A model generated the notes under the pieces. The model was not told the origin of the DNA, did not search any database, and saw only the letters and a program-made list of their open reading frames with translations. DNA of 64,000 bases from a phage. A program made the position numbers and the translations under genes. The stretch lies in the NCBI GenBank assembly GCA_019326865.1, contig GCA_019326865.1_4101.1. One strand, written 5' to 3'. How positions within the stretch are numbered: the stretch's first letter is position 1; each line of letters opens with the position of its first letter. Below, in pieces: positions 20,917 to 61,833 of the stretch.

Positions 20917-21345
20917 ATGAATATCGAACAAACTATCCGTAATCATTCTTTCTTCGCACCAGAAACTGGACGTGTTATCGAGAATATCAAAATCGAAGAA
21001 CTCATGATTAATGTTAAATACAAAGAACTAAATGATGAGATTAGCAGCACCATTTGTGCTTTACGTGCACCATTTCGTGACGAAAAAGCCAAAAAACCAG
21101 CATATGTTCTTGCAATTGCACTAGGGTGTGTCGTTAAACTGGCAGTTGATGAAAATATTATCAACATCAAAGTCGCCCCATCTAATGACGAAGAGAACAT
21201 TGATTTGAACTTCGATGGTAATCTTGATGAAGATGTATTTTTCCAACAATCACTTGTTTATGATTTCCGCACAGTTACACATTCTCATATCAACTTCGTC
21301 AATGAAATGGTTGATATTGTAGCAAAATATGAAGAATCACTATAA
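20917..21345 (+). CDS. EExFFQ-motif family protein
   Basis: 142 aa; C-terminal DEDVFFQQSLVYDF. Confidence 0.55.
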   Translation: MNIEQTIRNHSFFAPETGRVIENIKIEELMINVKYKELNDEISSTICALRAPFRDEKAKKPAYVLAIALGCVVKLAVDENIINIKVAPSNDEENIDLNFDGNLDEDVFFQQSLVYDFRTVTHSHINFVNEMVDIVAKYEESL

Positions 21346-21354
21346 GTAAATACA

Positions 21355-21380
21355 AAAGCCTCCACTATGGGGGCTTTTCT
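21355..21380 (+). terminator. rho-independent terminator
   Basis: AGCCTCC actat GGGGGCT followed by TTTTCT. Confidence 0.55.
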
Positions 21381-21399
21381 CACATAAGGTAATGAAGAC

Positions 21400-21951
21400 A
21401 TGATTGAACAAATTAAAATTCTCACAAAGCAAATTACCGATTTTCTTTCAGATAAAGATGGTTTTAAAACAGAAGTAAAAATGCACGGTGTTAGTCTTGA
21501 TGTTATTTCTCCTGATTCTAATGTGACAAATTATGATATGTATGAATTATTCCTTTACACGTTAGCAGTACGTAAGTTAGGAAGTGATATTGAACTTAAT
21601 ATTAATACTAATAGCGAAGGAAATAAAATTTTTGCAATCAACACGAGTGCCAAATTTGATATTAATGCAGAAATTAAAAAAATCAATGAAAGTTTTGTTG
21701 GCTTTAAACATAATTCTATTCAAGGTGTTTTTGTAGGAAAACAAACTTCCTCAAGTCAATACCCATACTGCATTATGACTTTATACAAAAATGGCGATTG
21801 GATGCGACAAGATTTAGTTTATGCTGAATTGTTGTATGCGTTTACACATGATCTTGTAATTGAATTGGACGACAGTGCTTTTTGCTTTAAGAAAATCAAA
21901 AAATTAACCAATGACATTCAAACACAACTTAAAGATTTAAATGATAAATAA
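21400..21951 (+). CDS. hypothetical protein
   Basis: ORF 183 aa. Confidence 0.5.
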   Translation: MIEQIKILTKQITDFLSDKDGFKTEVKMHGVSLDVISPDSNVTNYDMYELFLYTLAVRKLGSDIELNINTNSEGNKIFAINTSAKFDINAEIKKINESFVGFKHNSIQGVFVGKQTSSSQYPYCIMTLYKNGDWMRQDLVYAELLYAFTHDLVIELDDSAFCFKKIKKLTNDIQTQLKDLNDK

Positions 21952-22010
21952 ATATACCAGAAATGGTTAACATATCATGTTACTTTCATCCCTTACATAA
22001 TAATTATGCG

Positions 22011-22050
22011 TTATTATATTTTTCATTATTATATTTTTCATTATATTATT
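22011..22050. repeat. 15-bp tandem direct repeat (TTATTATATTTTTCA x2.6) in AT-rich intergenic region
   Basis: Two perfect adjacent units plus partial third. Confidence 0.6.
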
Positions 22051-22084
22051 ATTTTCTTTTTATTGTACATAATCATATTAGTAC

Positions 22085-22110
22085 TGCCCCGTTTTTCGGG
22101 GCATTTTTAT
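22085..22110 (+). terminator. hairpin plus T-run
   Basis: GCCCCG ttttt CGGGGC followed by ATTTTTATT. Confidence 0.5.
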
Positions 22111-22129
22111 TATCTAAAATTGAGGATAT

Positions 22130-22525
22130 ATGAATAATAACATTGGAACTTCAATAATTAACCCACTTTCTTATTACCTTGAGAAATTTAGAAGTACAAA
22201 TGGTAAGAAATTTAATAATATATTTCAGTTTTCTCATAAAGAATATATTACTATTGATCATTTTTCAAAGAAACTAATGTATGTAAATGATAATAATCAT
22301 ATTATTAAATTATCATTTGATATTGAATTAGATAAATTGACATTTACTGAATATATTAATAATAAAACTTCGTTTTTAAGCACATACAATAGAAAAGTAT
22401 ATAGGAACATTTCAATGTACCTAAATGACGAATATTACTTTCAACAATCTACCATAGAAGATGTATTATTCAGTACAGAAGAATTAAAAGAATTATATTA
22501 TTGGTATGAGCAATTTATCTATTGA
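22130..22525 (+). CDS. EExFFQ-motif family protein
   Basis: 131 aa; NDEYYFQQSTIEDV. Confidence 0.55.
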   Translation: MNNNIGTSIINPLSYYLEKFRSTNGKKFNNIFQFSHKEYITIDHFSKKLMYVNDNNHIIKLSFDIELDKLTFTEYINNKTSFLSTYNRKVYRNISMYLNDEYYFQQSTIEDVLFSTEELKELYYWYEQFIY

Positions 22526-22577
22526 CATTGTGGTTCGATTCTTCTACAATACAAGATAATACGTTGAGGAAAAATGA

Positions 22578-22988
22578 ATGAGTTTAGATTTACACAATGA
22601 ACTAAAATATTTTTTAGATTTGGATATATCCAATTTGAGCCAACACGTCAATTATATAACTAGTACTGTGTGGTGGTCTAATGAACAAGATGACCCAATT
22701 ATACAACTAAGTGATAATTCATCAGTTATGCGATTTTATAAGATTAATTATAAAAATAACATCAAGATCACATATATACCATACAAAAACATACTAATAG
22801 CCGAAACACTTAATCCAAGCTCTTTATTAAAAATCACCGATATAGATACATTACAAACAAATGAATCATTATTTCAACGTTCATTGGTTGATGATCTTGG
22901 TGGTATTACTTTTGAAGATATATTACAATTGAAGAATATGTATAGCGAATTGTTAGAGATTAAAAACACTTTAGTAATGGGGGATTGA
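22578..22988 (+). CDS. EExFFQ-motif family protein
   Basis: 136 aa; NESLFQRSLVDDLGGITFEDI. Confidence 0.55.
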   Translation: MSLDLHNELKYFLDLDISNLSQHVNYITSTVWWSNEQDDPIIQLSDNSSVMRFYKINYKNNIKITYIPYKNILIAETLNPSSLLKITDIDTLQTNESLFQRSLVDDLGGITFEDILQLKNMYSELLEIKNTLVMGD

Positions 22989-22989
22989 T

Positions 22990-23388
22990 ATGGTAAGTTT
23001 ACTAGATATTGATAATACCAGTTTAGTGTTGGTGAAAAAAGGTTTAATCCCCAATTCTACAAAAATTGATTATGCTGTTATTGAAACAAATATGGGAAAT
23101 ATTTGGTATGATTCCGAAAGGGATATTGTGATTAGCTGCGTAGACAGTGACCGTGCTGAGTGTTGTAGAGTCGGTCATGACGGACAATTTGTTTTTGAAT
23201 TTCGTTATTGGAAGGACGCAAAATTTCACCAAGAACTTGTTGCTTTGTCAAATGAACTATATACAGAAGAAACTTTCTTTATGGAAAGTACTATTAATGA
23301 TCTTGGTTCAGTAACGTATGAGCACTATAAAAAAGTATACACACTATCCAGAGAAGTTATGAAAATTATCAGAACTGCTGAAAGTTGA
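22990..23388 (+). CDS. EExFFQ-motif family protein
   Basis: 132 aa; EETFFMESTINDLGSVTYE. Confidence 0.55.
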   Translation: MVSLLDIDNTSLVLVKKGLIPNSTKIDYAVIETNMGNIWYDSERDIVISCVDSDRAECCRVGHDGQFVFEFRYWKDAKFHQELVALSNELYTEETFFMESTINDLGSVTYEHYKKVYTLSREVMKIIRTAES

Positions 23389-23395
23389 GAATAAC

Positions 23396-23785
23396 ATGAC
23401 TACTATATATGATATTTTAGATAACTTGAATAAAAATATTGATAAAAATTTAGTTATCGTCGCTAATACTAGATGTATAATTCATCTTCCAGATATAAAT
23501 TATATTCCAACGGATACAACTGATAGATTAATTATTAATACATATTTACAATCATTAACATATCTCTATAATGGGATGGTGATATGGGTTTTTGATATAA
23601 AAGAAAATACAATACGATATGTATATGACTTTAACGATTATTGGTCAAGAACCCATAACATTGATATTGAGGAAGATGAACTGTTTCAATTGTCGTTAAT
23701 CGAGAAAAATGTAATAGGAGTTACCGAAATTGGCATTGTTAAAAAAGCATTGGAATATGCAAATAGTAAATTAAATGGTGAATAA
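23396..23785 (+). CDS. EExFFQ-motif family protein
   Basis: 129 aa; EDELFQLSLIEKNVIGVTEI. Confidence 0.55.
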   Translation: MTTIYDILDNLNKNIDKNLVIVANTRCIIHLPDINYIPTDTTDRLIINTYLQSLTYLYNGMVIWVFDIKENTIRYVYDFNDYWSRTHNIDIEEDELFQLSLIEKNVIGVTEIGIVKKALEYANSKLNGE

Positions 23786-23787
23786 AC

Positions 23788-24234
23788 ATGGATGTTGATA
23801 AAATAGCAAATCATTTTGAAATTGCATTATCTTGTAATTTTGATACCAAAAGCGTAGAATCACCTAAAGAGTATATACATATTAGCTGTTCTTATTCACA
23901 TTCATGTATAGTCCATATTGAAAAGACCTATGACCGTACTGAGTTATCGTTTTACAACCCACTCATCAGAACAACATCAGTTATGTTAATATATAATACA
24001 ATATCTGACATTATTGAAATTATTTCAAATTATACTGATGTAACTTGTACAACTATATATAATGCAAGTACATGCATAACAGAAGAAGGATATTTCCAGG
24101 AGTCACTTATTCAAAATTTTAATTATGATTATAAAGATTTATGTTATATAGTCTTAAGTTTTGAAAAAATAAACGAAATGGTTTTGTCATTATTTGACAT
24201 AATCGAACAAAATCCAAAGGTAATCAAATGCTAA
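23788..24234 (+). CDS. EExFFQ-motif family protein
   Basis: 148 aa; EEGYFQESLIQNF. Confidence 0.55.
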   Translation: MDVDKIANHFEIALSCNFDTKSVESPKEYIHISCSYSHSCIVHIEKTYDRTELSFYNPLIRTTSVMLIYNTISDIIEIISNYTDVTCTTIYNASTCITEEGYFQESLIQNFNYDYKDLCYIVLSFEKINEMVLSLFDIIEQNPKVIKC

Positions 24235-24668
24235 ATCCAATAAAGTTTTTTAATTTATTAGGTATTACATCTATACCGGATTTAACAAGTGAAACAAACG
24301 TATATCGTGATGTTGGAAATGTATCATTGGAATATGATACATTTGACTTTAAATGTTACATAACATATAACATTGAATCCTATACTAAAAAATCATCATA
24401 CATTTTTGTGTTCATATATAATGATTATAGTGGTAATACACTGAATGATGTTCATATTGACACATTTGAAATATGTGGTAATATTATATCAGATGAATCA
24501 TCATCTACATTTGATTTGGAATTAAACAGTACTGAAGAGTCACTTTTTCAGTTGAGTACTATAAGTGACACTATATTAACACCAGATGACATTGAGAAAT
24601 TTAAAGAACATCTTGACGCAGTTCGTGAGATGTTCTATAATCATTATCCAGAAGTGGAGTTCAAATAA
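24228..24668 (+). CDS. EExFFQ-motif family protein
   Basis: 146 aa; TEESLFQLSTISDT. Confidence 0.55.
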   Translation: MLNPIKFFNLLGITSIPDLTSETNVYRDVGNVSLEYDTFDFKCYITYNIESYTKKSSYIFVFIYNDYSGNTLNDVHIDTFEICGNIISDESSSTFDLELNSTEESLFQLSTISDTILTPDDIEKFKEHLDAVREMFYNHYPEVEFK

Positions 24669-25325: not shown

Positions 25326-27221
25326 ATGAAACCTATCCGAGTACTATCTCTTTTTAATGGGATGAGTGTAGGATACATGGCATTAAAAGATGCTGGTATC
25401 CCTGTTGAAAAATATTATTCATCCGAAATTGACAAATTTGCTATAGCTGAATCCCAAGCTAACTTCCCCGATATCATCCAATTGGGTGATGTAACTAGAT
25501 GGAAAGAATGGGATATCGAATGGGACAAGATAGATCTACTGATGGGTGGTTTTCCATGCTTCCCAGCAGGAACTATGATAATGACAAATAAAGGTCATAA
25601 AGATATAAAAGATATAAAAATTGGTGATATGGTTCTTACACACACTGGACAGTACCAAAAAGTATTGAGTACTTGTGTAAAACAAGCACCAACTAGAATT
25701 ATATCAGGTCAGGGCCATTTACCTATTGAATGTACCGATAATCACCCATTTTATTCGAGAGTTTTGGGTAAAAAATGGAATAATGCCAAACGTCAATATG
25801 ATAGAATAGCAAGCGATGCAGAATGGGTATATGCATCAGAATTAACACCAAATCATTTACTATGTAATGTAAAATCATCGTATGTTCGTGAATCATCATT
25901 GAGAGATGAAAAATTTTGGTATTTTATGGGTAGATTTGCAGGAGATGGGTGGGTATCAAAAGTTAAACGTCAAAAAAGAAAAAATAGTTATGTATATAAA
26001 GTGTTAATGTGTTGTGCACATGATGAATTTGATGAATTGGTTGAATGTTTTGATGGTTTAAAAATGAATTATAATTATACCAAAGAACGCACTTCATATA
26101 AATTTTATATTACATCAAAAACTTTACTTGAATTCTGTGAAAAGATGGGGAAAGGTGCTTCTAATAAAATTGTTCATCCTGAATTATGGTCCGAATGTGT
26201 AGAAAATAAAAAAGCTTTTCTTGAAGGGTACATATCGGCTGACGGTCATTACTATGATGGTAAATGGCACATTACATCAACATCATCAAACATGATATTG
26301 GGTATACAGCAATTAGTCATGGACATTTATGGAAGGCATGTGAATATACATAAAGTCACACCGTCACCCACTAAGATTATTGAGGGACGTATAGTAAATC
26401 AAAAACCGTGGTACAGAATAGAATTCACTGAAAATCCACTAAAACATGAAAATGCTTTTTATGATGATGATACGTATGCTTGGGTAAACGGTGTCAAAAA
26501 AAGTATACCTACAAATGAAATAAAAGACGTATATTCATTTGAAGTTGCAGTAGATAACACATATACGGCGAACAATATTGTAGTTCATAACTGTCAAGCG
26601 TGGTCAGTTGCTGGGAAACAAGGCGGTGTGAATGACCCTCGTGGTATGTTATTCCATACAATGGTTGATATTTACCAGCACATAAAAAGTCTCAATCCAG
26701 ACTTGAAAGTACTGTTCGAGAATGTTAAAATGAAAGAAGATTTCAAGCAATACATTAATAGTGTTCTTGAGATGACACCAGTACTGATAAATTCCCAGCA
26801 TTATACGCCTCACTTCAGGCAGAGATATTACTGGTACAGTACTGATAAACTTTTTATACCACCTGCATTATCCAATGCACCTAAACTTCAAGATATTATT
26901 GAAGATGGTTGGTACACTGACAGAACCGCTTCGTACTGTATAGATGCTAACTATTTTAAGGGTGGTGATTGTAACCAGTACTTTAATAAATCAAGAAGAC
27001 AAATTGTTTTCAAAGAACCTGATATCGATAGGGATTTCCTTCTTGAACATGGTAAGCGAAATGTGGACTATCGTCATTTAACAGTACAAGAGTGTTGCAT
27101 GTTGCAAGGAATTGATGTAAACTACTTCAAAGTTAGTAGTTCAACACAAGCATACAAAATGCTTGGGAATGGATGGACTATGCCAGTTATATCACACTTA
27201 CTACGAGATATATTCTTTTGA
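25326..27221 (+). CDS. DNA (cytosine-5)-methyltransferase precursor interrupted by an intein
   Basis: Extein motifs: I LFNGMSVG, IV GGFP|CQAWSVAGK (split by insert), VI FENV, VIII QRYYW, IX RHLTVQECCMLQGI, X LGNGWTMPV; extein about 286 aa. Confidence 0.8.
   Translation: MKPIRVLSLFNGMSVGYMALKDAGIPVEKYYSSEIDKFAIAESQANFPDIIQLGDVTRWKEWDIEWDKIDLLMGGFPCFPAGTMIMTNKGHKDIKDIKIGDMVLTHTGQYQKVLSTCVKQAPTRIISGQGHLPIECTDNHPFYSRVLGKKWNNAKRQYDRIASDAEWVYASELTPNHLLCNVKSSYVRESSLRDEKFWYFMGRFAGDGWVSKVKRQKRKNSYVYKVLMCCAHDEFDELVECFDGLKMNYNYTKERTSYKFYITSKTLLEFCEKMGKGASNKIVHPELWSECVENKKAFLEGYISADGHYYDGKWHITSTSSNMILGIQQLVMDIYGRHVNIHKVTPSPTKIIEGRIVNQKPWYRIEFTENPLKHENAFYDDDTYAWVNGVKKSIPTNEIKDVYSFEVAVDNTYTANNIVVHNCQAWSVAGKQGGVNDPRGMLFHTMVDIYQHIKSLNPDLKVLFENVKMKEDFKQYINSVLEMTPVLINSQHYTPHFRQRYYWYSTDKLFIPPALSNAPKLQDIIEDGWYTDRTASYCIDANYFKGGDCNQYFNKSRRQIVFKEPDIDRDFLLEHGKRNVDYRHLTVQECCMLQGIDVNYFKVSSSTQAYKMLGNGWTMPVISHLLRDIFF
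25557..26591 (+). mobile_element. intein (about 345 aa) with LAGLIDADG homing-endonuclease motifs, inserted before catalytic Cys of PCQ motif
   Basis: Begins CFPAGTMIMT..IGDMVLTHTG (block A), ..TDNHPFY (block B), LAGLIDADG-like FMGRFAGDGWV and FLEGYISADGHYY, ends NNIVVHN followed by C (+1 Cys of CQAW). Confidence 0.75.
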
Positions 27222-27707: not shown

Positions 27708-27733
27708 AAATCCACGCAATGCGTGGATTTTTC
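27708..27733 (+). terminator. rho-independent terminator
   Basis: AAATCCACGC aat GCGTGGATTT followed by TTC. Confidence 0.55.
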
Positions 27734-27745
27734 ATAGGTGTATAT

Positions 27746-28261
27746 ATGTCAATTCCTTATGTTAAAATTATTAACAATATTCTTGATTCTTGGGAAGATG
27801 TCATTATTGGCAAAAAGAAACCTTTTCCTGTTCATGCACTAACTGGAAGACTACAATTCAGAATGTCAAACAAAACTGAAACGTTTAATAATCATGATAT
27901 TTGTATTACATTAAAAACACCTGTTAGTATTGTAATTAAAAAAAATAAAGATGATGAATTGTCATTATCTATTGGTCGTGATAAAATCATTTTAAGTAAT
28001 TTGTCTGAAGAAGAATTCTTTCAAAGAAGTACTATCATCGACATGAAAGATTTCACATATGAATCATTAGTAGAACTCAATACACGTTTTGATGATATTC
28101 AGGAACGATTGCGACCAATCCTCCGTAGAGAAGAAGAAGCCTGGATTGAAAGTATGAAGAAGATGCAAGAAATGTTAAAAGAAACTATTAACAATATGGG
28201 TCAATCTATTTTGGACATTGGTAAAACTTTTAAACTCAACTTTTCAAAGGAACGTAAATGA
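27746..28261 (+). CDS. EExFFQ-motif family protein
   Basis: Start moved to ATG 27746 past terminator hairpin; SEEEFFQRSTIIDM. Confidence 0.55.
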   Translation: MSIPYVKIINNILDSWEDVIIGKKKPFPVHALTGRLQFRMSNKTETFNNHDICITLKTPVSIVIKKNKDDELSLSIGRDKIILSNLSEEEFFQRSTIIDMKDFTYESLVELNTRFDDIQERLRPILRREEEAWIESMKKMQEMLKETINNMGQSILDIGKTFKLNFSKERK

Positions 28262-28710
28262 AAATCGATGAACTGATTTATATTTTAGGTAACTTGCATA
28301 AAATATTGTTACATCTCCAAGAGATAAAGAACCTTGGGTATAGCATGTCCAATACTAATAAAACCGCATTTGAATACAACCCAACCACGGGTGGAAATTA
28401 TAATATTGTGTATTGTTATGAAACTGACCCAGACTGCTATCAACTTACGTTATACTTTTATCCAACAAACCCTACCATTGTTCAAGACATATCATCAATA
28501 TCACTTGACCCAGATGGTGAAATGAGTATAGAATATAGCTATGATTCTAAAAAAGAATGTTACGTTGAAGATATGAAAAATATGTTTAACGACGAATATG
28601 TGTTCCAGCTAAGTACTGTACATGATGTTGGAAGTACTAATGGACAATTTTGGAATACATGTTATTATCATATGATTGAAATTTGTAAATTACTAAAAGG
28701 CGATGATTAA
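28258..28710 (+). CDS. EExFFQ-motif family protein
   Basis: 150 aa; NDEYVFQLSTVHDV. Confidence 0.55.
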   Translation: MKIDELIYILGNLHKILLHLQEIKNLGYSMSNTNKTAFEYNPTTGGNYNIVYCYETDPDCYQLTLYFYPTNPTIVQDISSISLDPDGEMSIEYSYDSKKECYVEDMKNMFNDEYVFQLSTVHDVGSTNGQFWNTCYYHMIEICKLLKGDD

Positions 28711-29093
28711 TGAAATACAGCATTGAAGTACATTACACTACTGGTGATACTGAAAATCAATATAACATAGTTAAGACCATTGATGTTCAATGGGATACTA
28801 AAGAGGAAGCAGTTGCTGCTTTACAGTGCCTAAAAGAGCATTGGGTGTTTTATATGAAGCAAGATAATTGCTATACAAAAGAACACGAAACTATCGTTAA
28901 AAATGCTAAACAAAAAGAGTGGTTTGACCCAATTTCACCAGAATATTCATTTTTGGTTAAAGTTGGCGGTGTGACAGTTCCCTTACGTACACCGTGGAAC
29001 GGCTACTTTGAAACTCTTCATAATGCACGAGTTGTCGCTGTTGATAATCCTGAACAAATCGATTTCGATTCATTGGACTGGAAAAAACTATGA
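28710..29093 (+). CDS. hypothetical protein
   Basis: ORF 127 aa. Confidence 0.5.
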   Translation: MKYSIEVHYTTGDTENQYNIVKTIDVQWDTKEEAVAALQCLKEHWVFYMKQDNCYTKEHETIVKNAKQKEWFDPISPEYSFLVKVGGVTVPLRTPWNGYFETLHNARVVAVDNPEQIDFDSLDWKKL

Positions 29094-52472: not shown

Positions 52473-52536
52473 ACGTAGTATTAGAAGCGAACAGACATCT
52501 CGAAGAGATGGATGATTAACTATTGAGGAATATCCA

Positions 52537-52746: not shown

Positions 52747-52973
52747 GTTATGGTGTTCGTTTTGAGATTCGTTCTATTATTATCAATGACGAGAAACAAG
52801 CATCGTTGGATGGAGATATACGAGAAAAATATCTATCATGTATCCGTGCAAAATCTGAAGCAGATGCATTAGCACAAATGTATAGTTTTAACTTTTTTCA
52901 TGGATACCATTTGGTACGAGTTATCGAAGTTACAAAAATAATTATAGATTGTAGCATGGAAGGATTAATGTAA
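52743..52973 (+). CDS. hypothetical small protein
   Basis: ORF 76 aa, ATGA overlap. Confidence 0.45.
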   Translation: MSYGVRFEIRSIIINDEKQASLDGDIREKYLSCIRAKSEADALAQMYSFNFFHGYHLVRVIEVTKIIIDCSMEGLM

Positions 52974-52974
52974 A

Positions 52975-53763: not shown

Positions 53764-53778
53764 TCAGAGGAAATTATT

Positions 53779-53961
53779 ATGCAAATCATCATTCTTATCG
53801 TAGGTATCATTCTTGGTGTATATGGTCACTCCTGGATGAACGAGAAGTTCCCTAATACCCGTCCTGAGTATTGCAGCACTAATGTATTTCAGAATGGTGA
53901 GAAACCAAAGGAAAGTATTGGTAAAAAGCTGGACAAAGTACTTGACGTAATCAATGAATAA
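53779..53961 (+). CDS. small membrane protein
   Basis: 60 aa; N-terminal hydrophobic helix. Confidence 0.4.
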   Translation: MQIIILIVGIILGVYGHSWMNEKFPNTRPEYCSTNVFQNGEKPKESIGKKLDKVLDVINE

Positions 53962-53970
53962 GGGTAAAGT

Positions 53971-54171
53971 ATGTTTAAATCAAATACCAATGTTGGTAAG
54001 AAGGTTCAATTACTTGAGGATGTATCCACCTTGAGTGGAATTTTCCCAAGAGGTCACATCATGACTATTATTGCCGAAACATACCGTGGGTGGGATTTGG
54101 AAGATGCTGATGGTAATCGCATCCTTGAGGCTGGATTCTATGGTCATCGTGAATATAAAATCATTGATTGA
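53971..54171 (+). CDS. hypothetical small protein
   Basis: ORF 66 aa. Confidence 0.45.
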   Translation: MFKSNTNVGKKVQLLEDVSTLSGIFPRGHIMTIIAETYRGWDLEDADGNRILEAGFYGHREYKIID

Positions 54172-54265
54172 GGATGCAAACGTGACTTTAGAGATTGTCT
54201 TTGGTATTGTTAGCTTAGTCGTCTGTGTGGGTTGGTTTGGATATATGATGATATTTGGTGACTAA
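54140..54265 (+). CDS. possible small hydrophobic peptide (41 aa)
   Basis: Internal ATG of ORF 54071..54265; hydrophobic C-terminus. Confidence 0.25.
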   Translation: MVIVNIKSLIEDANVTLEIVFGIVSLVVCVGWFGYMMIFGD

Positions 54266-54268
54266 TAC

Positions 54269-54296
54269 TTGACATAAGATATCAGTACTGTATAAT
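54269..54296 (+). promoter_or_regulatory. sigma70-like promoter (TTGACA-16-TATAAT) with ATCAGTACTG in spacer
   Basis: Same family as tRNA-region promoters. Confidence 0.5.
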
Positions 54297-54389
54297 GTTT
54301 ATATCAAAGGGAATGCAGTGAAAGGAAAGACAACATAATCGTACTCGTCACTGCGTTCCCACTCTTTTAAATTAATTAAGGAATTAACT

Positions 54390-54698
54390 ATGTTTCAAAC
54401 TAACACTCAAGGTTTTGTAATCATTGATTTGAATCAAAACAGCGGTAATTGGATGAAACCTACTGACGCATGTATGCAGTTTGATTTCTTAGGTTACAGA
54501 ATTAGTGTAAGTACTGGTGCTTCTGTACTGAGGGGTGGTTGTATCGTTGAACATCTGGTAACTGATCCAGAAGGTCGTGAGTATGAAATCGCAGGTTCAG
54601 TACAAGATGCCATTATGTTTGTATGTCAGCGTGAAATGAATGGTTCGAATTCAAATGCACTGACTCATGCTCTTTCTCAAGAAGTGGAGGTTCGTTAA
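54390..54698 (+). CDS. hypothetical protein
   Basis: ORF 102 aa. Confidence 0.5.
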   Translation: MFQTNTQGFVIIDLNQNSGNWMKPTDACMQFDFLGYRISVSTGASVLRGGCIVEHLVTDPEGREYEIAGSVQDAIMFVCQREMNGSNSNALTHALSQEVEVR

Positions 54699-54949
54699 TG
54701 AAATACATTGTAGCAGTACTCGTCGCATTTTTACTCACTGCATGTGATGCTTCAACCAAAGAACGCACAAGTGATTTTGAACTCCCTACTGAATTAAAAG
54801 AAGCAGGATGTAAGATTTATCGTATGCAACAGGAAGGTGCTGGTGCAACGTTGTATACAGTTTATTGTCCTAATGCAAACACCAGTACTGGATACACTAG
54901 CGGAAAAACACGAATCAACACTTCAGTGATTAATGGAGTACAACAATGA
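54698..54949 (+). CDS. putative lipoprotein
   Basis: 83 aa; signal + lipobox LLTAC. Confidence 0.5.
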   Translation: MKYIVAVLVAFLLTACDASTKERTSDFELPTELKEAGCKIYRMQQEGAGATLYTVYCPNANTSTGYTSGKTRINTSVINGVQQ

Positions 54950-55314
54950 GCCTTGATACAACCCGTGCAACAGATTTATTCACTCGTCTGAATGATGAAG
55001 AATATCTTGCTGAAATAAAGTACAAGCTTGAAAAACTGGCTCGAAGTGCTGAAGTAATTGAAGTTAAAGGTCATTTACCAATGGATCAATTCCATACGTT
55101 CAAAGAAGATATGGTTTATTATCCAAATGAAATTTGGATTGAGTGGGAACATTGGACTAACAAAACTCTACGCATTGAAGGTTATTGTGTGAATTATGAA
55201 TCTGAACCTGGTGATGTTACAAAAACTCTCTCCATTTGGTGTACAAAAACACATGAACTAGTTGAGGTGAATTTGAATTATATGAAAGGTTTCCGTTGGG
55301 GTGATATTCAATGA
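54946..55314 (+). CDS. hypothetical protein
   Basis: ORF 122 aa. Confidence 0.5.
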   Translation: MSLDTTRATDLFTRLNDEEYLAEIKYKLEKLARSAEVIEVKGHLPMDQFHTFKEDMVYYPNEIWIEWEHWTNKTLRIEGYCVNYESEPGDVTKTLSIWCTKTHELVEVNLNYMKGFRWGDIQ

Positions 55315-55586
55315 TTAAAAAACTATTGACAGTTGTCTTTGTATTCTGTACAATGTTTCTTACAGCATGTAATGATGACGGCAGGTTTAGTGCAAAAGAC
55401 TTAGTTCGTCAGGATTGTACATTCACAGGTAAGTCTTTTATTAACGAGTATGAGGTATGTACACAACCAGGCCGTATCTGTGGTGCTTGGGAAAAACGAC
55501 AGGAGCGATTGTATGTATATGAATGCCCTGGACATCTCAACAAAGTAATAAGTACTCACAAACTTGTTTATGATAAGGTTGAATAA
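55311..55586 (+). CDS. putative lipoprotein
   Basis: 91 aa; signal + lipobox FLTAC. Confidence 0.5.
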   Translation: MIKKLLTVVFVFCTMFLTACNDDGRFSAKDLVRQDCTFTGKSFINEYEVCTQPGRICGAWEKRQERLYVYECPGHLNKVISTHKLVYDKVE

Positions 55587-55801
55587 TGACTACAAATGAA
55601 ATGATGCAGGTTATTTGGGATAAAGGTTGTGATATTAAAATCACTAGTACTGATGTTCGTGTGTTCAAAACTGAATACCTAGAGTACTTGGACCTTGATA
55701 CTTATAATAATATTGTAGCAATTGAACACAAAGGTGCAGTACTTGAAACTATTGATGTAGTTCTGAAGAAAGCAACAGACCTATTAGGTTCGTCAGTGTG
55801 A
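55586..55801 (+). CDS. hypothetical small protein
   Basis: ORF 71 aa. Confidence 0.45.
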   Translation: MTTNEMMQVIWDKGCDIKITSTDVRVFKTEYLEYLDLDTYNNIVAIEHKGAVLETIDVVLKKATDLLGSSV

Positions 55802-55941
55802 ATAATAAAGAGTGGGAAGAATACCGAAAAAAATGCCGAGAGTTTGATAAAGAACTCACAGGTACAGTGAACGCGGTAATGTGGGTATCTGCAATTATTG
55901 CAGTACTTGGTTTGGGTGCTATTATTAATAAATTATTCTAA
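55798..55941 (+). CDS. possible small membrane protein (47 aa, GTG start)
   Basis: C-terminal hydrophobic helix; below ORF-track cutoff. Confidence 0.3.
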   Translation: MNNKEWEEYRKKCREFDKELTGTVNAVMWVSAIIAVLGLGAIINKLF

Positions 55942-55949
55942 GGACTAAT

Positions 55950-56150
55950 ATGTTTACTTTATATCTTGCAGTAGCACTAACTAATGGTGAAATCACTCGC
56001 ACCGTTGGTGAAGGTGTATATAATACACCTGAGCAGTGTTACTCTGCGACTCATTGGCCTAGTGATGCTGGTGATAACACTCGCACTGAATACAAATGTA
56101 TGAAGGTTAAAGGTGACTTTGTAAATCTAAAGATTATTGAGACTAAGTAA
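55950..56150 (+). CDS. hypothetical small protein
   Basis: ORF 66 aa. Confidence 0.45.
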   Translation: MFTLYLAVALTNGEITRTVGEGVYNTPEQCYSATHWPSDAGDNTRTEYKCMKVKGDFVNLKIIETK

Positions 56151-56668
56151 TGGATATTAATGAGTTGTTGAACTTATTGTTTAATCGTGAACTCCGCGAT
56201 ACAAGAACAATTGAATATCAAGATGTGATACGTATTGAAACTGATTTTTGTTATGGTAAAACAACTCATGATCTTTTGAATCCATCTGGAAAACGCTATG
56301 CTGATGTTTGTTTTTCTGAAAGAAGTGATGGTTCAGAAATAACAAGTACTGAAATTGTGTTTTATGATAGATCCTCGGCTGGTTCGTATGAAATAGAACT
56401 TATATATTGTCCTTGTTCAGAAACACACAATAAACGTCAGATATTATATGATGTTTATTCACCTCCAGGTATTGCTGAATATTTTGTTATTGATTACAGT
56501 ACTGAAGAAAGTGTGTTTCAACAGAGCTTGATTTATAACTTCCAGTTGAATGATCCATTAGTACCGAAGATTTTCAAACTACTTGACACAATCGATGTTG
56601 AATTTGAATTTGTTATGTGCATTAGAACTTCCTTATTCAATGAATTTGTGGAACTTTTTAATATATGA
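56150..56668 (+). CDS. EExFFQ-motif family protein
   Basis: 172 aa; TEESVFQQSLIYNF. Confidence 0.55.
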   Translation: MDINELLNLLFNRELRDTRTIEYQDVIRIETDFCYGKTTHDLLNPSGKRYADVCFSERSDGSEITSTEIVFYDRSSAGSYEIELIYCPCSETHNKRQILYDVYSPPGIAEYFVIDYSTEESVFQQSLIYNFQLNDPLVPKIFKLLDTIDVEFEFVMCIRTSLFNEFVELFNI

Positions 56669-56886
56669 ATAGATACTATGTTGTGTATGAACACGTTTCT
56701 GAATTTAATAACATACGAGGTTATTCCAGAGTTGTCACAAAGATGGATGTATTCATACGTGCTCTTAGTGAAGTAGAGGCACTGTTTAAATTGTTTGATG
56801 AAATTACAAAGTATAACACACTCAAAACACACCGCTATGTGGAAACTGTACATAGCATTATGCTAACTGAAAGTGAGGAGGAATGA
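56665..56886 (+). CDS. hypothetical small protein
   Basis: ORF 73 aa. Confidence 0.45.
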   Translation: MNRYYVVYEHVSEFNNIRGYSRVVTKMDVFIRALSEVEALFKLFDEITKYNTLKTHRYVETVHSIMLTESEEE

Positions 56887-56889
56887 TAA

Positions 56890-57108
56890 ATGAATTTATA
56901 TCTTGTTGAAGGATTGGTACAAGTCTATAAACCTGAAGGTGAAGGGCAACGTTTTTTGTATGTAGAAGATTTTAAGTATGTTGTAAAGGCATCTTGTCAA
57001 AGCGATGTTGAAATTCAAGTTCGAGAATCATTTCGTAATAAGAATGCAATTGGAAAATTCAAATATCAGCACTTACAATTCAAAGTATGGCCTAGCTTAA
57101 ATGACTAA
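56890..57108 (+). CDS. hypothetical small protein
   Basis: ORF 72 aa. Confidence 0.45.
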   Translation: MNLYLVEGLVQVYKPEGEGQRFLYVEDFKYVVKASCQSDVEIQVRESFRNKNAIGKFKYQHLQFKVWPSLND

Positions 57109-57316
57109 GATGTGGTGGTGTCATGGTGTCTATAACGTGTATGTAAATGGTCAATATAAAATGTCTAGTACCTATGCTAGACGTGTCCATGCGAACAATA
57201 AAGTTGATGCTGCATGTGAGATTATTGAGTGGTATGCTGAGTTCAATACATTTGATTATATGTACGAAATAGTTACAATAAATGTTGTACAAATTGACAC
57301 GTCTCTGATACAATAA
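57101..57316 (+). CDS. hypothetical small protein
   Basis: ORF 71 aa. Confidence 0.45.
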   Translation: MTKMWWCHGVYNVYVNGQYKMSSTYARRVHANNKVDAACEIIEWYAEFNTFDYMYEIVTINVVQIDTSLIQ

Positions 57317-57347
57317 CTACATCAAAAAAACTGCAACTGAGGATACT

Positions 57348-58010
57348 ATGTTAGTAAATCTTAATTTCATCACTTCTCCTGATTGGGCATTACGTGGTGT
57401 TTCTTTGAACTTTAAAGAAACTAATTTCGACTACATTGGGGATTGTACTTTAGTTAATGCTACATTTGATCCTCATCATCCTTTTTGGGCTAAGATTCAT
57501 GATCCTAATGTAAACAATAGTGTATCTGTTATGACTATTGTACAGACGAAATATCCTGGCATTCTCGCAGGTGACCATCCTAAAGTTGCAATTAATCATT
57601 TCACTGATTATGATGTAGTAGATGAGTATCCAATGATTCATGAAGATGGAAGTTTATACACATCTGAAGACGTTCGTGCTATCTTTAATAGTACTGATGA
57701 TATTCTACCAAGTGGACGAGCACGTCCTAAGTCTTATCTTATGCATTCATCTTATGGTGTAGCAGATACGCTTGAGCAGATTATGAAGAAGTACAAGAAC
57801 CTAATTGAAGGTCCAGAAGAAGTTGTCATGTGCTATCATCCAGTACTGAAGTCTGAGCAACCAAAGGATGGTGGTTGGCGTTGGCATAAGAATGGTGATT
57901 ATATCGGTACGAAACGAAGTAAAGAACGTTTTGAGTACTTGTATGATGAGCCAGATGTTGATGTGGTTTTGTGTTATAATTTTATTAAGGTGAAAAAGAA
58001 ATGTATCTAG
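57348..58010 (+). CDS. hypothetical protein
   Basis: ORF 220 aa. Confidence 0.55.
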   Translation: MLVNLNFITSPDWALRGVSLNFKETNFDYIGDCTLVNATFDPHHPFWAKIHDPNVNNSVSVMTIVQTKYPGILAGDHPKVAINHFTDYDVVDEYPMIHEDGSLYTSEDVRAIFNSTDDILPSGRARPKSYLMHSSYGVADTLEQIMKKYKNLIEGPEEVVMCYHPVLKSEQPKDGGWRWHKNGDYIGTKRSKERFEYLYDEPDVDVVLCYNFIKVKKKCI

Positions 58011-58243
58011 TACTAAGTTTTGTTGTTGCACTATTGTTTATGTTTTACCCTACACTGGTAGCACTAGCTACAAGACGAACAGTTGGCGATATCACAACAG
58101 TATTCTTGTTAAACGTGGTTCTGGCACTAGTGTCTATTATAATCCCAGTAAACCCCAATGTTATTGACATGGTAACAGTATTTCTCTTTGTATTCAGTTA
58201 TCTTATTCTTATCGATGAAAAACCTGTTGACAAACAATCTTAG
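58001..58243 (+). CDS. small membrane protein
   Basis: 80 aa; two hydrophobic helices. Confidence 0.45.
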   Translation: MYLVLSFVVALLFMFYPTLVALATRRTVGDITTVFLLNVVLALVSIIIPVNPNVIDMVTVFLFVFSYLILIDEKPVDKQS

Positions 58244-58254
58244 TGCTGTATAAT
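58227..58254 (+). promoter_or_regulatory. sigma70-like promoter (TTGACA-16-TATAAT)
   Basis: Spacer contains TAGTGCTG; overlaps 3' end of ORF 58001. Confidence 0.45.
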
Positions 58255-58295
58255 AGTTCTTGAAATGTAAAAACTTAAATATGAGGGTATAAAAT

Positions 58296-58616
58296 ATGTT
58301 ATCAGTATTGTTTTCAATTCCATCTTTAATTCTAATTTGGATTATTGTGTATGAATGTTTTATTGTAGATGATACGGAGAAAAAAGAATTCAATGAGTTA
58401 TTCATGCTTGATACGCCAGTTGTCCGCATTTTCTATTCTGTAGTTATCGTTTCAGTACTTGCATGGATTGTAAGTTTTATCTTTCCAATGGGTATGATCA
58501 TTAATGTGTTGAATTTGGTTGAAAACACTATTGCTATTCTATGGCTAATTAAAGCGTGGTATTCAGGAAATGTTAATATTTGGATTGATATTATTAAATC
58601 TAAATTTACAAAATAA
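58296..58616 (+). CDS. integral membrane protein
   Basis: 106 aa; 3 hydrophobic helices. Confidence 0.5.
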   Translation: MLSVLFSIPSLILIWIIVYECFIVDDTEKKEFNELFMLDTPVVRIFYSVVIVSVLAWIVSFIFPMGMIINVLNLVENTIAILWLIKAWYSGNVNIWIDIIKSKFTK

Positions 58617-58656
58617 GATGTAACAAGTAATAGTGAAACAACCTAGTTATTATTAA

Positions 58657-58694
58657 ATACTTCTGTACATACATATAGTACAGAAGTATTTCTT
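58657..58694 (+). terminator. hairpin plus T-rich tract
   Basis: ATACTTCTGTAC (9-nt loop) GTACAGAAGTAT followed by TTCTT. Confidence 0.5.
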
Positions 58695-58708
58695 AGTAGA
58701 GGTTTGTT

Positions 58709-59068
58709 ATGAATACTTATATAAAATTAATAGCACTTACTTGCTTGTTATTGTCTTTTTTTAGTTACGGTTCGTCATCTGAAACACAATGTCGTAGTAC
58801 TAATGGAACGATGTATTCATTAACTAACGATCCCGGAAATGGTAAAAATATTGTTATCAATGGTGAAACTTATCGTTTTAAAGTGCAAAGCATTATTGGT
58901 AATAAAAAGATAACGACTTATATTAATGATTCTGGGACACTTGCAAATGTTATATTAATTGTTAATCCAAAAACAGGTAGTGGTGATATCTATATAGTAA
59001 TTTATTTAGATTCAGCACAACAACGAGAATTAGATATAGATGAATTAAATCTTCATTGCAAAATATAG
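58709..59068 (+). CDS. secreted protein (signal peptide)
   Basis: 119 aa; N-terminal hydrophobic signal-like segment. Confidence 0.5.
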   Translation: MNTYIKLIALTCLLLSFFSYGSSSETQCRSTNGTMYSLTNDPGNGKNIVINGETYRFKVQSIIGNKKITTYINDSGTLANVILIVNPKTGSGDIYIVIYLDSAQQRELDIDELNLHCKI

Positions 59069-59456: not shown

Positions 59457-59809
59457 TTATGAAAATTATCTTGTTTTTTGTATCTATGTTATTATGCGGA
59501 TTTGTATATGCTGAACCACTCGAAGGCTTAGTTTGCACTGACGGACAAATCAAACATATCTATCAAGGTGATAGTTATGATCATGATATTGTTTATATTG
59601 ATGGTCAACAATATAACTTTGTTAAAGAGCATACTATTGGCGACATTAGCTTCAATGAGTTTTCAAACGATGAAGACCCTAACGCATTGGCATTTATGGA
59701 AGTTGATTTGTATGAAGATAGTAATGGTACACAATATGCTAAACTTGTTATGATGCGTCGTGGTGCTAAAGAAACAAGTTTCGGTGGTTTATGTAAATAT
59801 AAGGATTAA
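59453..59809 (+). CDS. secreted protein (signal peptide)
   Basis: 118 aa; MIMKIILFFVSMLLCGFVYA signal-like. Confidence 0.5.
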   Translation: MIMKIILFFVSMLLCGFVYAEPLEGLVCTDGQIKHIYQGDSYDHDIVYIDGQQYNFVKEHTIGDISFNEFSNDEDPNALAFMEVDLYEDSNGTQYAKLVMMRRGAKETSFGGLCKYKD

Positions 59810-59814
59810 TTATT

Positions 59815-60006
59815 ATGCTGATTTATCAATGTGATAATATTCGTGTTCTACAACATCCTTATCTTCAAATCTTTCATGTTCAGATGTTTATGGAAGGTGA
59901 TAATCCGAGAACTTATGAACGCACATATGATTATTTCACGGTCAAAGAGTGCGACAACATCGATGAAGTACGACGATTAGTACATGAACTCCAAAACAAA
60001 GGTTGA
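59815..60006 (+). CDS. hypothetical small protein
   Basis: ORF 63 aa. Confidence 0.45.
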   Translation: MLIYQCDNIRVLQHPYLQIFHVQMFMEGDNPRTYERTYDYFTVKECDNIDEVRRLVHELQNKG

Positions 60007-60025
60007 CTTCGGTCAGCCTTTTTTG
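60001..60025 (+). terminator. rho-independent terminator (GGTTGAC ttcg GTCAGCC + T6)
   Basis: Member of 3-copy UUCG-loop terminator family. Confidence 0.7.
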
Positions 60026-60060
60026 TTATAATTATTTTATATTCTAATGGAGTTTAAATT

Positions 60061-60501
60061 ATGTTAGTATATCGTTTTGAACTTAAATTTAGTTACATTG
60101 AACCTTATTTGAAACCAGCAACAAATGTTGGTCCATTTGCACGGTATTCTTCAAAATACAGTACTAAAAATGGTTTTGACCGTTTGTATATGTCTACGCC
60201 TACTCAGTTCCAACCTGAACCAACTGATGATGGAATCTATTCAATCAAATATGGATGGGCATTTGGCTGTCAAAGTTTGAATGATTTGTTTCGGTTCTTT
60301 ACTATGGACTTGGGTAAATTACATCGTGCTGGGTTTGCTATTTCCGTATATGACGTACCTGATAATCATGTGGATATTGGTCGTAATCAGGTTCAGTACT
60401 ATTGCGGTAGTGCAATATTGGTTCGTATCATGTCAGTTAAGGATGCAAAGGTGGAGTACCGTCAAAGTAAAAGAGTAATACATGAGGTTCTATATGGATA
60501 A
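60061..60501 (+). CDS. hypothetical protein
   Basis: ORF 146 aa. Confidence 0.5.
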   Translation: MLVYRFELKFSYIEPYLKPATNVGPFARYSSKYSTKNGFDRLYMSTPTQFQPEPTDDGIYSIKYGWAFGCQSLNDLFRFFTMDLGKLHRAGFAISVYDVPDNHVDIGRNQVQYYCGSAILVRIMSVKDAKVEYRQSKRVIHEVLYG

Positions 60502-60838
60502 GACACAAATAGAATTGAAAAAATTTGTATCATTCTATCTACCAAATGATCCACGTAATTCACAAAAAGATTTTGAATATTATAATATCCTAAGTAAACA
60601 GTTAATGAGAAAGTTTCAACAGTGTTTAAGTATATTCAATACCGATGGTAGACGTAGATACCGAATCATTTCAATGAATGATGAAAACGCAAACTACTTT
60701 GATTATGATGTTGTTTTTAGAGCATATAATGATGACCGAATTAAATTAAATTATGAACAAATAATATTTGATCTAAGTGCTATATCTGTTATAATTACTC
60801 ACATCGCCGAGATTAATGGTTTTAAAGAGTGGTATTGA
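60482..60838 (+). CDS. hypothetical protein
   Basis: ORF 118 aa. Confidence 0.5.
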   Translation: MRFYMDKTQIELKKFVSFYLPNDPRNSQKDFEYYNILSKQLMRKFQQCLSIFNTDGRRRYRIISMNDENANYFDYDVVFRAYNDDRIKLNYEQIIFDLSAISVIITHIAEINGFKEWY

Positions 60839-60852
60839 ATAGAGGACAATAT

Positions 60853-61119
60853 ATGAAGCTTAAATTGCAATATAATGGATTTACTTTACGTAATGATACT
60901 GAGTTTGTCAATCGTTCACCTGGTGCTGAACTTTTTTTGCGAGAGATGAACATTCCTTTCATTATCACTACTGTAGGGGATCGTGAAGTTTTACAATACG
61001 CAGAGCATCCTATTATTGATGTTCCTTGGTACTCTGAACATATGTACATGGATATGGCACGTCGCTACAACTGTAAGTTCATAGTAGAAGGTGATAAAAT
61101 TACAGTACAATTTAAATGA
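60853..61119 (+). CDS. hypothetical small protein
   Basis: Start ATG 60853 after AGAGGA; 88 aa. Confidence 0.45.
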   Translation: MKLKLQYNGFTLRNDTEFVNRSPGAELFLREMNIPFIITTVGDREVLQYAEHPIIDVPWYSEHMYMDMARRYNCKFIVEGDKITVQFK

Positions 61120-61260
61120 TGTGAATTGAAATGAACATTTAATCATCATTGCAAATGTAGAAATGGTGTACATGAAGTATAATATAAAAAGGGAAATCAT
61201 ATATGGCTTCCCCTTTTTCTTATTACGTACAATTAAGTACATATATTAATTGAGGAAATT

Positions 61261-61833
61261 ATGAATCGTAAAGGTCGTTTTAAGGTATCAAAGAAGAATA
61301 AGAGTTCTAGGTTTAAACCTATAGTGTTAACAGTTAAAGCTAAAGAAAAATTAACTGCACTTAGTAAAAAGATCATTTCATCTAAGATCAAAATATCATA
61401 TATAAATTCAGTAAAATATCAAAATGTCAAACCACGAGATCAACTTATTTCACTTATATTTAAACGTAATGATTTTGAGATATCAGTAGATGATTATAGA
61501 GCCTATAATGCTAGTTTCATTAATGTTACTTGTACTACAGAACTAACTGAATTAGAACATTTGTCATGTATAGTAAATCTCGATAAAGGTGTAGTGAAAT
61601 ACCACTTTGTACATTTTACTAATATTAATGATGGAACGGGTGTACAATCCAGAACTATAGTACCTACATGCGATGTGACTAAATTATCAAAGCTCAATGA
61701 TGAAGAATACTTTCAAGAAAGCATCGTAACTGAACATTTAGATAATATAATAGCTACTTACAAAGAATGTATATGGGTTTTGAATGCTATCAAGCCTAAA
61801 TTGTGTTTAATGAATATTGTTCGTGATTTATGA
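61261..61833 (+). CDS. EExFFQ-motif family protein
   Basis: 190 aa; NDEEYFQESIVTEHLDNI. Confidence 0.55.
   Translation: MNRKGRFKVSKKNKSSRFKPIVLTVKAKEKLTALSKKIISSKIKISYINSVKYQNVKPRDQLISLIFKRNDFEISVDDYRAYNASFINVTCTTELTELEHLSCIVNLDKGVVKYHFVHFTNINDGTGVQSRTIVPTCDVTKLSKLNDEEYFQESIVTEHLDNIIATYKECIWVLNAIKPKLCLMNIVRDL

Follow-up and report, generated by a model that had tools for sequence, protein, structure and literature searches.

A large and highly diverged family of small paralogous proteins in RaK2-like jumbo phages

INTRODUCTION

Expanded gene families have been recorded in several jumbo phages. The ~35-copy zinc-ribbon expansion of Bacillus phage G was called unprecedented by Iyer et al., and an array of paralogues was reported in 2017 for phage 121Q in a paper that gives no gene list (PMC5646251). 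Nearly 10% of the gene products of phage RaK2 were described as paralogues, with nothing further, and 22 paralogous open reading frames (ORFs) were listed for phage CBB. The expansions of phage G and 121Q consist of dozens of small tandem paralogues and were interpreted as genome expansion by duplication. Here, we describe a comparable set of genes within a 64,000-nucleotide stretch of phage DNA (GenBank assembly GCA_019326865.1, contig GCA_019326865.1_4101.1), referred to as the window throughout. Between positions 20917 and 61833, the window encodes a large, ancient, and previously undescribed family of small proteins with a common motif near the C terminus, which we provisionally call the TEExFFQxS family of RaK2-like jumbo phages. 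Neither the family nor its motif is described in the searchable literature.

Diversified arrays of another kind are the SUKH/Imm genes of polymorphic toxin systems, anti-CRISPR and other anti-defense loci, and the African swine fever virus multigene families (MGF). Like the genes described here, these are small, fast-evolving tandem paralogues; they stand on a conserved scaffold, as is predicted for the present family, are expressed early, and neutralize varied opponents. The analogy has limits, because none of 124 family members matches a Pfam profile of this sort and the repertoire is stable rather than strain-variable.

RESULTS

Nineteen ORFs constitute a true paralogous family

The first-pass annotation of the window, made from the sequence alone, proposed a highly diverged multigene family of 19 to 21 copies. 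All 15 motif strings that it quoted were located in plus-strand ORFs, 29 to 81 residues from the C terminus. The pattern [FYWLVIM][FYW]Q.[STCL][STLIMV][ILVM] has 15 matches among plus-strand ORFs of at least 50 amino acids (aa), compared with 0.80 ± 0.88 (maximum 4) in 500 residue shuffles, and the motif is thus not a chance occurrence. A hidden Markov model (HMM) built from the 15 motif-bearing ORFs and iterated within the window converged on 19 ORFs, bringing in four members with variant motifs at 22990 (FFMES), 34909 (RFMLS), 42636 (YLQLN), and 43421 (HFMAS; members are named by their first nucleotide). With leave-one-out profiles, 15 of the 19 scored below E 1e-4 and a total of 17 below E 1e-3; 61261 (E 0.007) and 23396 (E 0.025) were the weakest. 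A profile made only of sequences from outside the window recovered exactly the same 19 ORFs (E 9e-20 to 8e-8). Its alignments span profile positions ~5 to 125 in most members and hence extend beyond the motif. The next-best ORF, 35412-35816, scored E 0.026 and carries a degenerate VEEE-FQYNLLY; it is probably a 20th, degenerate member. No member was found elsewhere in the window outside 20917-61833.

Might there be no family at all, and the motif reflect chance in AT-rich, low-complexity small ORFs or in unexpressed, decaying duplicates? The divergence of the set lends this some appearance, since pairwise similarity is seen by phmmer for 8 of the 19 members and is undetectable for the other 11, and mean column identity across the 19-member alignment is just 18%. 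The idea is nonetheless refuted by the shuffle control, by the leave-one-out and independent profiles, by conserved positions outside the motif, by detection across genera with zero decoy matches, and by ratios of nonsynonymous to synonymous substitution rates (dN/dS) well below 1. The 19 plus-strand ORFs of 117 to 190 aa, together with the one degenerate ORF, are therefore a true, very diverged paralogous family. We define its motif as [ST]-E-E-x-[YFL]-[FL]-[QM]-x-[SCN]-[TL]-[VIL]-x-[DN], placed 29 to 81 residues from the C terminus of a protein of 115 to 190 aa; 15 window members carry the strict form and 4 a variant. The members total 8,403 nucleotides, in line with the roughly 8 kb proposed at first, and six of them do form an uninterrupted array at 22130-24668. 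One ORF in the cluster initially drawn at 27746-29533, namely 28710-29093, proved to be a nonmember (outside-only HMM E 3.1).

The family spans genera and accounts for about a tenth of the genes in relatives of the window phage

An 8-kb segment spanning the tandem array shares 94% identity with Escherichia phage UE-S1 and ~88% with PBECO4, 121Q, and phAPEC6. The window phage is an Asteriusvirus, a jumbo coliphage of ~350 kb in the PBECO4/121Q/UE-S1 group. Single members used as tblastn queries found 1:1 orthologues in all 37 Asteriusvirus records, and one, 22578, also had matches in RaK2 and K64-1, both Klebsiella phages (27% identity, E 2e-4). In 71 kb of RaK2 sequence syntenic with the window, the window-only HMM matched 13 ORFs (E 2e-16 to 4.5e-4), all bearing the same motif (e.g., TEEEFFQQSTIHD and TEESYFQSSLIYD). 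Since this profile contained no RaK2 sequence, these matches confirm the family independently.

When 1.84 billion representative proteins were searched exhaustively with the profile, 113 clusters (50% identity) emerged at E ≤ 1e-3, all of 62 to 217 aa. Orthologue hits and cluster representatives together gave 137 sequences, of which 134 carry the motif, with the consensus xTEEEYFQQSTVxDxGxLTxED. Named sources are the Salmonella phages Munch, SE_PL, and 7t3, the Klebsiella phage fENko-Kae01, and the Erwinia phage Hallingskeid; every traceable source is a jumbo phage or a contig of ~350 kb. The family was found only in RaK2-like jumbo phages, whose genomes are ~350 kb long. A homologue search with the family alignment returned just 27 to 28 close orthologues, even at E ≤ 10, and tblastn with the profile consensus gave no match, probably because of low-complexity masking.

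Copy number in related phages, which the first-pass annotation had suggested surveying, was determined by scanning all ORFs on both strands of two whole genomes of relatives of the window phage. Asteriusvirus EC22.5-2 (OR845138, 352 kb) has 56 members with the combined profile and 50 with the window-only profile (E < 0.01); a RaK2-like Klebsiella phage (348 kb) has 40 and 31, respectively. All matches lie on the coding strand, with 0 of 520 and 0 of 491 minus-strand decoy ORFs matching. In both genomes, the members occupy two blocks plus a few scattered copies. One block corresponds to the window; the second, denser one, at ~51 to 85 kb of each record, holds 21 to 34 members. In EC22.5-2, this second block (57 to 85 kb) is interleaved with ORFs of similar size that may be more diverged members. 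By this count, the window shows about one-third of a superfamily to which roughly 10% of the genes in these relatives belong. Neither the 40 to 56 copies per genome nor the presence in several jumbo-phage genera was anticipated at first, and given that the ~35 copies in phage G were called unprecedented, these numbers are notable.

121Q belongs to the same genus as the window phage, and its reported array must be told apart from the present family. The only tight array that BLAST reveals in EC22.5-2 consists of 24 genes of 63 to 104 aa at 51 to 59 kb, none matching the family profile. This is probably the array reported for 121Q, which would hence be different from the family described here. 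The present family is a different protein, BLAST links few of its members, and it is larger (40 to 56 copies), arranged in two blocks with scattered copies, and shared across genera. Large paralogue sets other than the present family lie in EC22.5-2 at 51096-59000, where this array sits, and at 6295-24575; one set comprises 16 genes of ~400 aa.

The family escapes existing classifications. Scans of the 124 members against Pfam and NCBIfam revealed no family common to more than one of them, neither SUKH/Imm nor any other named Pfam domain gave a curated-profile match, and a PDB sequence search had no match. PHROGs split the paralogues into separate families, none with a known function, that cross-match weakly at the motif region; orthologues of single paralogues are placed in families 17453, 24941, 23322, 23719, 21500, 30841, 38573, 28118, 33518, and related ones (E 1e-38 to 1e-117), and the superfamily relationship of these families is not recorded. 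The initial view that the motif is not a named domain is thereby borne out, and assignment to known families, which would have dissolved the group, did not occur. One metagenomic sequence, P0058 (115 aa), is a member resembling RaK2 ORF184 whose first 33 residues match the end of Pfam RecQ-1-like_HTH (E 3.7e-12). It has just the last 25 positions of that domain, seems to be a chimera or a truncated ORF and not a genuine fusion of domains, and has no bearing on the nature of the family.

Members are old, retained, and fast-evolving under purifying selection

Among the 17 testable members, 16 have 1:1 orthologues in fEgEco12 and all 17 in UE-S1, and positional orthologues of several are kept in RaK2. 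Between the window and fEgEco12, median protein identity is 74.6% for the family, compared with 87.7% for other accessory genes (P = 0.002) and 88.5% for the replication block. Median dN follows the same order (0.144, 0.073 [P = 0.007], and 0.065, respectively), as does median dN/dS (0.24, 0.15, and 0.05). Individual family values of dN/dS in this comparison range from 0.04 to 0.65, which, together with the 1:1 orthologues, indicates that the genes are functional. The family is under purifying selection and evolves about twice as fast as neighboring genes. Orthologue identity is 70.9% in the N-terminal sheet, 88.0% in the motif, and 76.6% in the C-terminal helix. The N-terminal two-thirds is the variable part even among orthologues, as the first-pass annotation had noticed for the paralogues. 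The picture that emerges is one of old, still functional duplications that have been retained, in which relaxed or diversifying pressure falls mainly outside the motif, with no rapid gain or loss.

Genomic context, predicted expression, and absence from virions

All long ORFs of the window lie on the plus strand, and the G+C content is ~32%. Replication proteins (topoisomerase II subunits and clamp loader) are encoded in the first 19 kb; the remainder is a long series of short hypothetical genes plus a phage sigma factor. Promoters of the sigma-70 type with at least 11 of 12 consensus positions number 36 on the gene strand and 2 on the other, against 2.9 expected for the whole window. Nine are perfect 12/12 matches to TTGACA-N16-18-TATAAT, e.g., at 30004, 31864, 32411, 46119, 47965, 49328, 54269, and 58227, and near-consensus promoters stand directly upstream of some members (22522-22550 and 38262-38289). 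In the genome paper of phage CBB, RpoD-like promoters were found concentrated in the equivalent short-ORF region with its sigma factor, and that region was proposed to hold early, host-takeover genes (PMC5259590). Placement of the family in the accessory/early region is thus supported, and host sigma-70 RNA polymerase probably transcribes its genes at an early stage.

No mapped orthologue of the family is among the 62 virion proteins of phAPEC6 (PMC7247149), and no RaK2 member is among the 54 virion proteins of RaK2 (PMC3622015 Table S3). This absence from two virion proteomes argues that the family proteins are nonstructural. Virion-internal or capsid-targeted proteins of the T4 IPI-III type were rejected as a model on the same mass spectrometry lists.

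The motif may be a structural keystone

The proteins have no transmembrane segment and are mostly acidic (median isoelectric point [pI] 4.6). AlphaFold2 models were made of two paralogues, both before a deep alignment existed, that of 43045-43473 with a 19-paralogue alignment. This first model (mf47486318529) has a mean predicted local distance difference test score (pLDDT) of 67, rising to 83 to 88 over residues 81 to 130, motif included. It shows a disordered N terminus, six antiparallel strands, and helices at 105-114 and 122-140, and the motif begins in a short helical turn behind the last strand and extends into the first long helix. The second model (29090-29533, m34cb18133053) has the same topology at pLDDT 58. 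A beta-meander followed by two C-terminal helices is thus the topology predicted for both. Foldseek against viral models gave no match at E < 1e-3; its weak top matches include uncharacterized RaK2 and CBB proteins that are probably fellow members.

The eukaryotic MAM33/p32/gC1qBP proteins (PF02330) have an alpha-beta7-alpha-alpha fold and form doughnut-shaped homotrimers whose acidic surface is asymmetric. A weak resemblance of the predicted fold to theirs raised the idea of acidic oligomers with an alpha-beta-alpha-alpha fold, acting as rings or decoys, as nucleic acid mimics, or as chaperones for basic DNA-binding proteins. We consider this quite improbable. The predicted sheet has 5 to 6 strands rather than 7, in models of low confidence; homology to p32 at the sequence level was rejected, with an hhalign probability of 0.06% against human p32 (sequence verified against 1p32_A); and 0 of 124 members match the Pfam MAM33 profile at E ≤ 0.01.

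Within the motif, E102, E103, F106, Q107, and S109 are conserved at 79 to 91% in the profile. Conservation outside it, which had gone unmentioned in the first-pass annotation, peaks at Y/F55 (2.97 bits) and also includes F/Y33, I50, and L12. The three variable motif positions, 104, 108, and 112, form a single i/i+4/i+8 stripe, as expected if one helix face looks toward solvent, and this argues for a structural core rather than a docking surface. Both T-E-E-x and the [LI]-T-x-E-[DE] after it presumably are ordinary helix N-capping boxes. Taken together, the stripe, the conservation elsewhere in the protein, and the likeness to capping boxes favor the motif as a structural keystone of the predicted scaffold.

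The shared-partner-binding module entertained by the first-pass annotation is accordingly less supported. In its fuller form, the proteins would be adaptors whose conserved C-terminal helix pair, with EExFFQxS, docks onto a single partner shared by all members (a host protease, RNA polymerase, or a phage machine, for example), while the variable N-terminal sheet picks out different cargos or targets. Such a design would account for a motif that is by far the most conserved element, also between orthologues, in an otherwise highly variable protein, and for five conserved motif residues that are polar, unusual for a purely buried core. We nevertheless judge it unlikely: the helix positions expected to face solvent are the least conserved, the sheet aromatic Y/F55 suggests that the motif packs inside the molecule, T-E-E-x and [LI]-T-x-E-[DE] resemble ordinary capping boxes, and no candidate partner was identified.

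The motif might also be a protease site, E-E-x-Y-F-Q|x, with cleavage freeing ~30 to 40 C-terminal residues or with the proteins being internal ones targeted to the capsid, like the T4 IP proteins. EEEYFQ matches positions P6, P3, P2, and P1 of the tobacco etch virus (TEV) protease site ENLYFQ, and the motif lies at a fixed distance from the C terminus. This is a highly improbable explanation. The region is predicted to be helical with the model's highest confidence, many sequences have F, L, or V at P3, few have G or S at the otherwise variable P1′, and orthologues are absent from both virion proteomes. No 3C-like protease was seen in the window, where not all ORFs were scanned for one. As a TEV/3C-type substrate (E-x-x-Y-x-Q followed by G or S in an accessible and extended segment), the motif was rejected, since E, Y, and Q fit in a subset of members only and the segment is predicted helical. 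T4-type prohead protease cleaves after L/I-x-E, which the family motif does not match. The fit of the TEV pattern E-x-x-Y-x-Q at 38579 (TEEEYFQMS), 29435 (EEMYFQQL), and 24091 (EEGYFQES) is probably a coincidence.

Members in the window

All members are on the plus strand; E values below are those of the outside-only HMM, followed, where given, by the leave-one-out value. Gene starts are uncertain for 27719, 34909, 43045, and 43421. The most upstream member, 20917-21345 (142 aa; motif DEDVFFQQSLVYD at nucleotide 21238; E 5.9e-13 and 4.8e-7), is 45% identical to RaK2 ORF184. The six-gene array opens with 22130-22525 (131 aa; NDEYYFQQSTIED; E 2.4e-13 and 7.9e-9), just downstream of a terminator-like hairpin at 22085-22103. 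Immediately before this hairpin, at 22017-22050, a 16-nucleotide AT-rich unit is duplicated in tandem (TATATTTTTCATTAT TATATTTTTCATTAT). The array continues with 22578-22988 (136 aa; NESLFQRSLVDD; E 9e-20), by which the 11/12 promoter at 22522-22550 lies, and 22990-23388 (132 aa; variant TEETFFMESTIND, with M for Q; E 3e-17 and 1.5e-10). Its most divergent gene is 23396-23785 (129 aa; EEDELFQLSLIEK; E 8.1e-8 and 0.025), just 60% identical to its UE-S1 orthologue, and it closes with 23788-24234 (148 aa; TEEGYFQESLIQN; E 3.4e-11 and 1.6e-5) and 24228-24668 (146 aa; TEESLFQLSTISD; E 1.9e-16 and 2.7e-8).

A second cluster begins with 27719-28261 (180 aa; SEEEFFQRSTIID; E 5.1e-17), which has a long basic C-terminal extension (pI 8.6). 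Its true start is probably 27746, because the PHROG alignment starts at residue 10. It is followed by 28258-28710 (150 aa; NDEYVFQLSTVHD; E 3.9e-11 and 6.3e-5) and by 29090-29533 (147 aa; LEEMYFQQLTIQED; E 3.9e-19), the protein of the second AlphaFold model. Farther along, 34909-35415 (168 aa; TTG start; variant TEEERFMLSTINP; pI 9.5; E 2.3e-9 and 6.2e-4) overlaps the probable 20th member, 35412-35816 (134 aa). The latter has a one-residue deletion in its degenerate motif, scores 16.3 bits with the combined HMM while aligning to profile positions 24 to 135, and was repeatedly the top nonmember in leave-one-out tests.

Member 38321-38674 (117 aa; TEEEYFQMSTVQE; E 1e-12) is solitary within the tRNA cluster, with the 11/12 promoter at 38262-38289 upstream. 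Directly after tRNA-Thr comes 41136-41561 (141 aa; TEEKFFQYCLLND; E 2.8e-17), which has pairwise phmmer links with 41554, 43045, and 22578; it is paired with 41554-41919 (121 aa; TEESLFQYSMIND; E 2.8e-15), whose orthologues occur in 34 Asteriusvirus records. A triplet follows, its first gene, 42636-43052 (138 aa; variant TEEMYLQLNFLYN; E 9.1e-15), standing just after a terminator-like hairpin at 42588-42612 and sharing just 43% identity with its fEgEco12 orthologue. The others are 43045-43473 (142 aa; DSELFFQLSTVSD; E 2.6e-14), the protein of the first AlphaFold model, whose start lies four codons later in database orthologues, and 43421-43879 (152 aa; variant TEEEHFMASTVKE; E 1.2e-10 and 4.2e-6), whose true start is probably later than annotated. 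The two remaining members are solitary: 56150-56668 (172 aa; TEESVFQQSLIYN; E 6.6e-10), with the top match of the database search (P0001, E 1.3e-19), and 61261-61833 (190 aa; pI 9.4; NDEEYFQESIVTE; E 7.5e-8 and 0.007), whose phAPEC6 orthologue, gp039c, is missing from the virion proteome.

Neighboring genes

Just beyond the last member, a 127-aa plus-strand ORF at 62405-62788 is the orthologue of phAPEC6 gp037c, a 14.8-kDa protein found in virions at 48% coverage, which places a structural protein within the "early" region. The sigma factor, at 50921-51874 (plus strand) in the middle of the accessory region, is RpoD-like (Sigma70_r2 plus r3) and orthologous to phAPEC6 gp066c and RaK2 ORF244. 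Between the array and the second cluster, 25326-27221 (plus strand) encodes a 631-aa C-5 cytosine DNA methyltransferase bearing an intein, with a Hint domain at residues 77 to 123 and a LAGLIDADG homing endonuclease at residues 295 to 344; the gene is intein-less, with 861 nucleotides, in phAPEC6 and fEgEco12, and the long form is also present in UE-S1.

Seven tRNA genes lie at 36194-41119. tRNA-Gly(TCC) occurs twice, at 36194 and 38709, and ARAGORN predicts a 92-nucleotide tRNA-Ser with anticodon ACT at 39192-39283 (plus strand), its A34 being unusual for a bacterial-type tRNA-Ser. Among these genes is a separate family of ~55-aa paralogues unrelated to the main one, on the plus strand at 35988-36164, 36509-36688, 37762-37926, 37923-38087, and 38084-38248 (pairwise phmmer E 1e-21 to 2.5e-4).

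DISCUSSION

Our findings establish a large and ancient protein family of RaK2-like jumbo phages. A role in host takeover or anti-defense, which the first-pass annotation had already raised, is a hypothesis compatible with the early-promoter context of the genes, with their faster evolution, and with the lack of their products in virions. We consider it quite possible, if somewhat short of probable, that the members form an early, nonstructural repertoire of intracellular binders with a conserved scaffold and a variable surface. Each protein would be a small, usually acidic, soluble alpha/beta domain, in which a poorly conserved N-terminal segment leads into an antiparallel beta-meander of five or six strands, with two helices at the C-terminal end. 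The motif, [ST]-E-E-x-[YF]-F-Q-x-S-[TL]-[VI]-x-D, would form the N-capped first helix, probably packing on the sheet with the conserved aromatic at profile position 55, and would serve as a folding keystone of the scaffold, not as a catalytic or docking site. Host sigma-70 RNA polymerase would transcribe the genes early, and the proteins would not be packaged. While the scaffold stays constant, sheet, loops, and termini would diversify among paralogues, so that each might bind and neutralize a different host protein, be it a defense or toxin effector or a housekeeping target of takeover.

Several observations weigh against this hypothesis. The dN/dS values, which are whole-gene pairwise estimates, are below 1 for every pair and thus give no sign of positive selection. 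The repertoire is stable, with 1:1 orthologues across Asteriusvirus and positional ones in RaK2, whereas copies should come and go in a fast arms race. Basic pI values (7.7 to 9.5) are seen in four members. The fold models are of medium to low confidence, burial of the motif is deduced only from helical periodicity, and E102, E103, Q107, S109, and D113 are conserved yet polar and could form a functional site. Early expression is a prediction from promoter consensus. Both the six-gene array and the 42636 triplet begin immediately downstream of terminator-like hairpins without a strong intervening promoter, and no shared promoter motif was seen upstream of these two arrays.

A more far-reaching and more doubtful reading is that the window genes are the visible third of what is possibly the largest multigene family recorded so far in a phage, a binder repertoire in which one stable alpha/beta scaffold would carry a variable sheet, diversified against many host defense or takeover targets. 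With at least 40 to 56 copies and ~10% of the genes, and predating the split of Asteriusvirus and Alcyoneusvirus, the family might then be a phage counterpart of the multigene families known from large DNA viruses of eukaryotes.

Therapeutic use of RaK2-like jumbo phages (Asteriusvirus, Alcyoneusvirus, and relatives) against Escherichia coli, Klebsiella, and Salmonella is under development, and for more than 80% of the genes of these phages no function is known. Attributing about one-tenth of these genes to one family turns dozens of "hypothetical proteins" into a single problem, for which the motif and the modeled fold provide a handle. In practice, the TEV-like EEEYFQ of many members matters when they are purified with TEV-cleavable tags. 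If members bind host factors, each phage would carry a natural library of up to 50 inhibitors, which could be used to find bacterial defense systems or essential targets and would help explain the broad host ranges of these phages, which lack a nucleus-like compartment. The family also illustrates how genome gigantism can arise through ancient duplication followed by divergence beyond the reach of BLAST.

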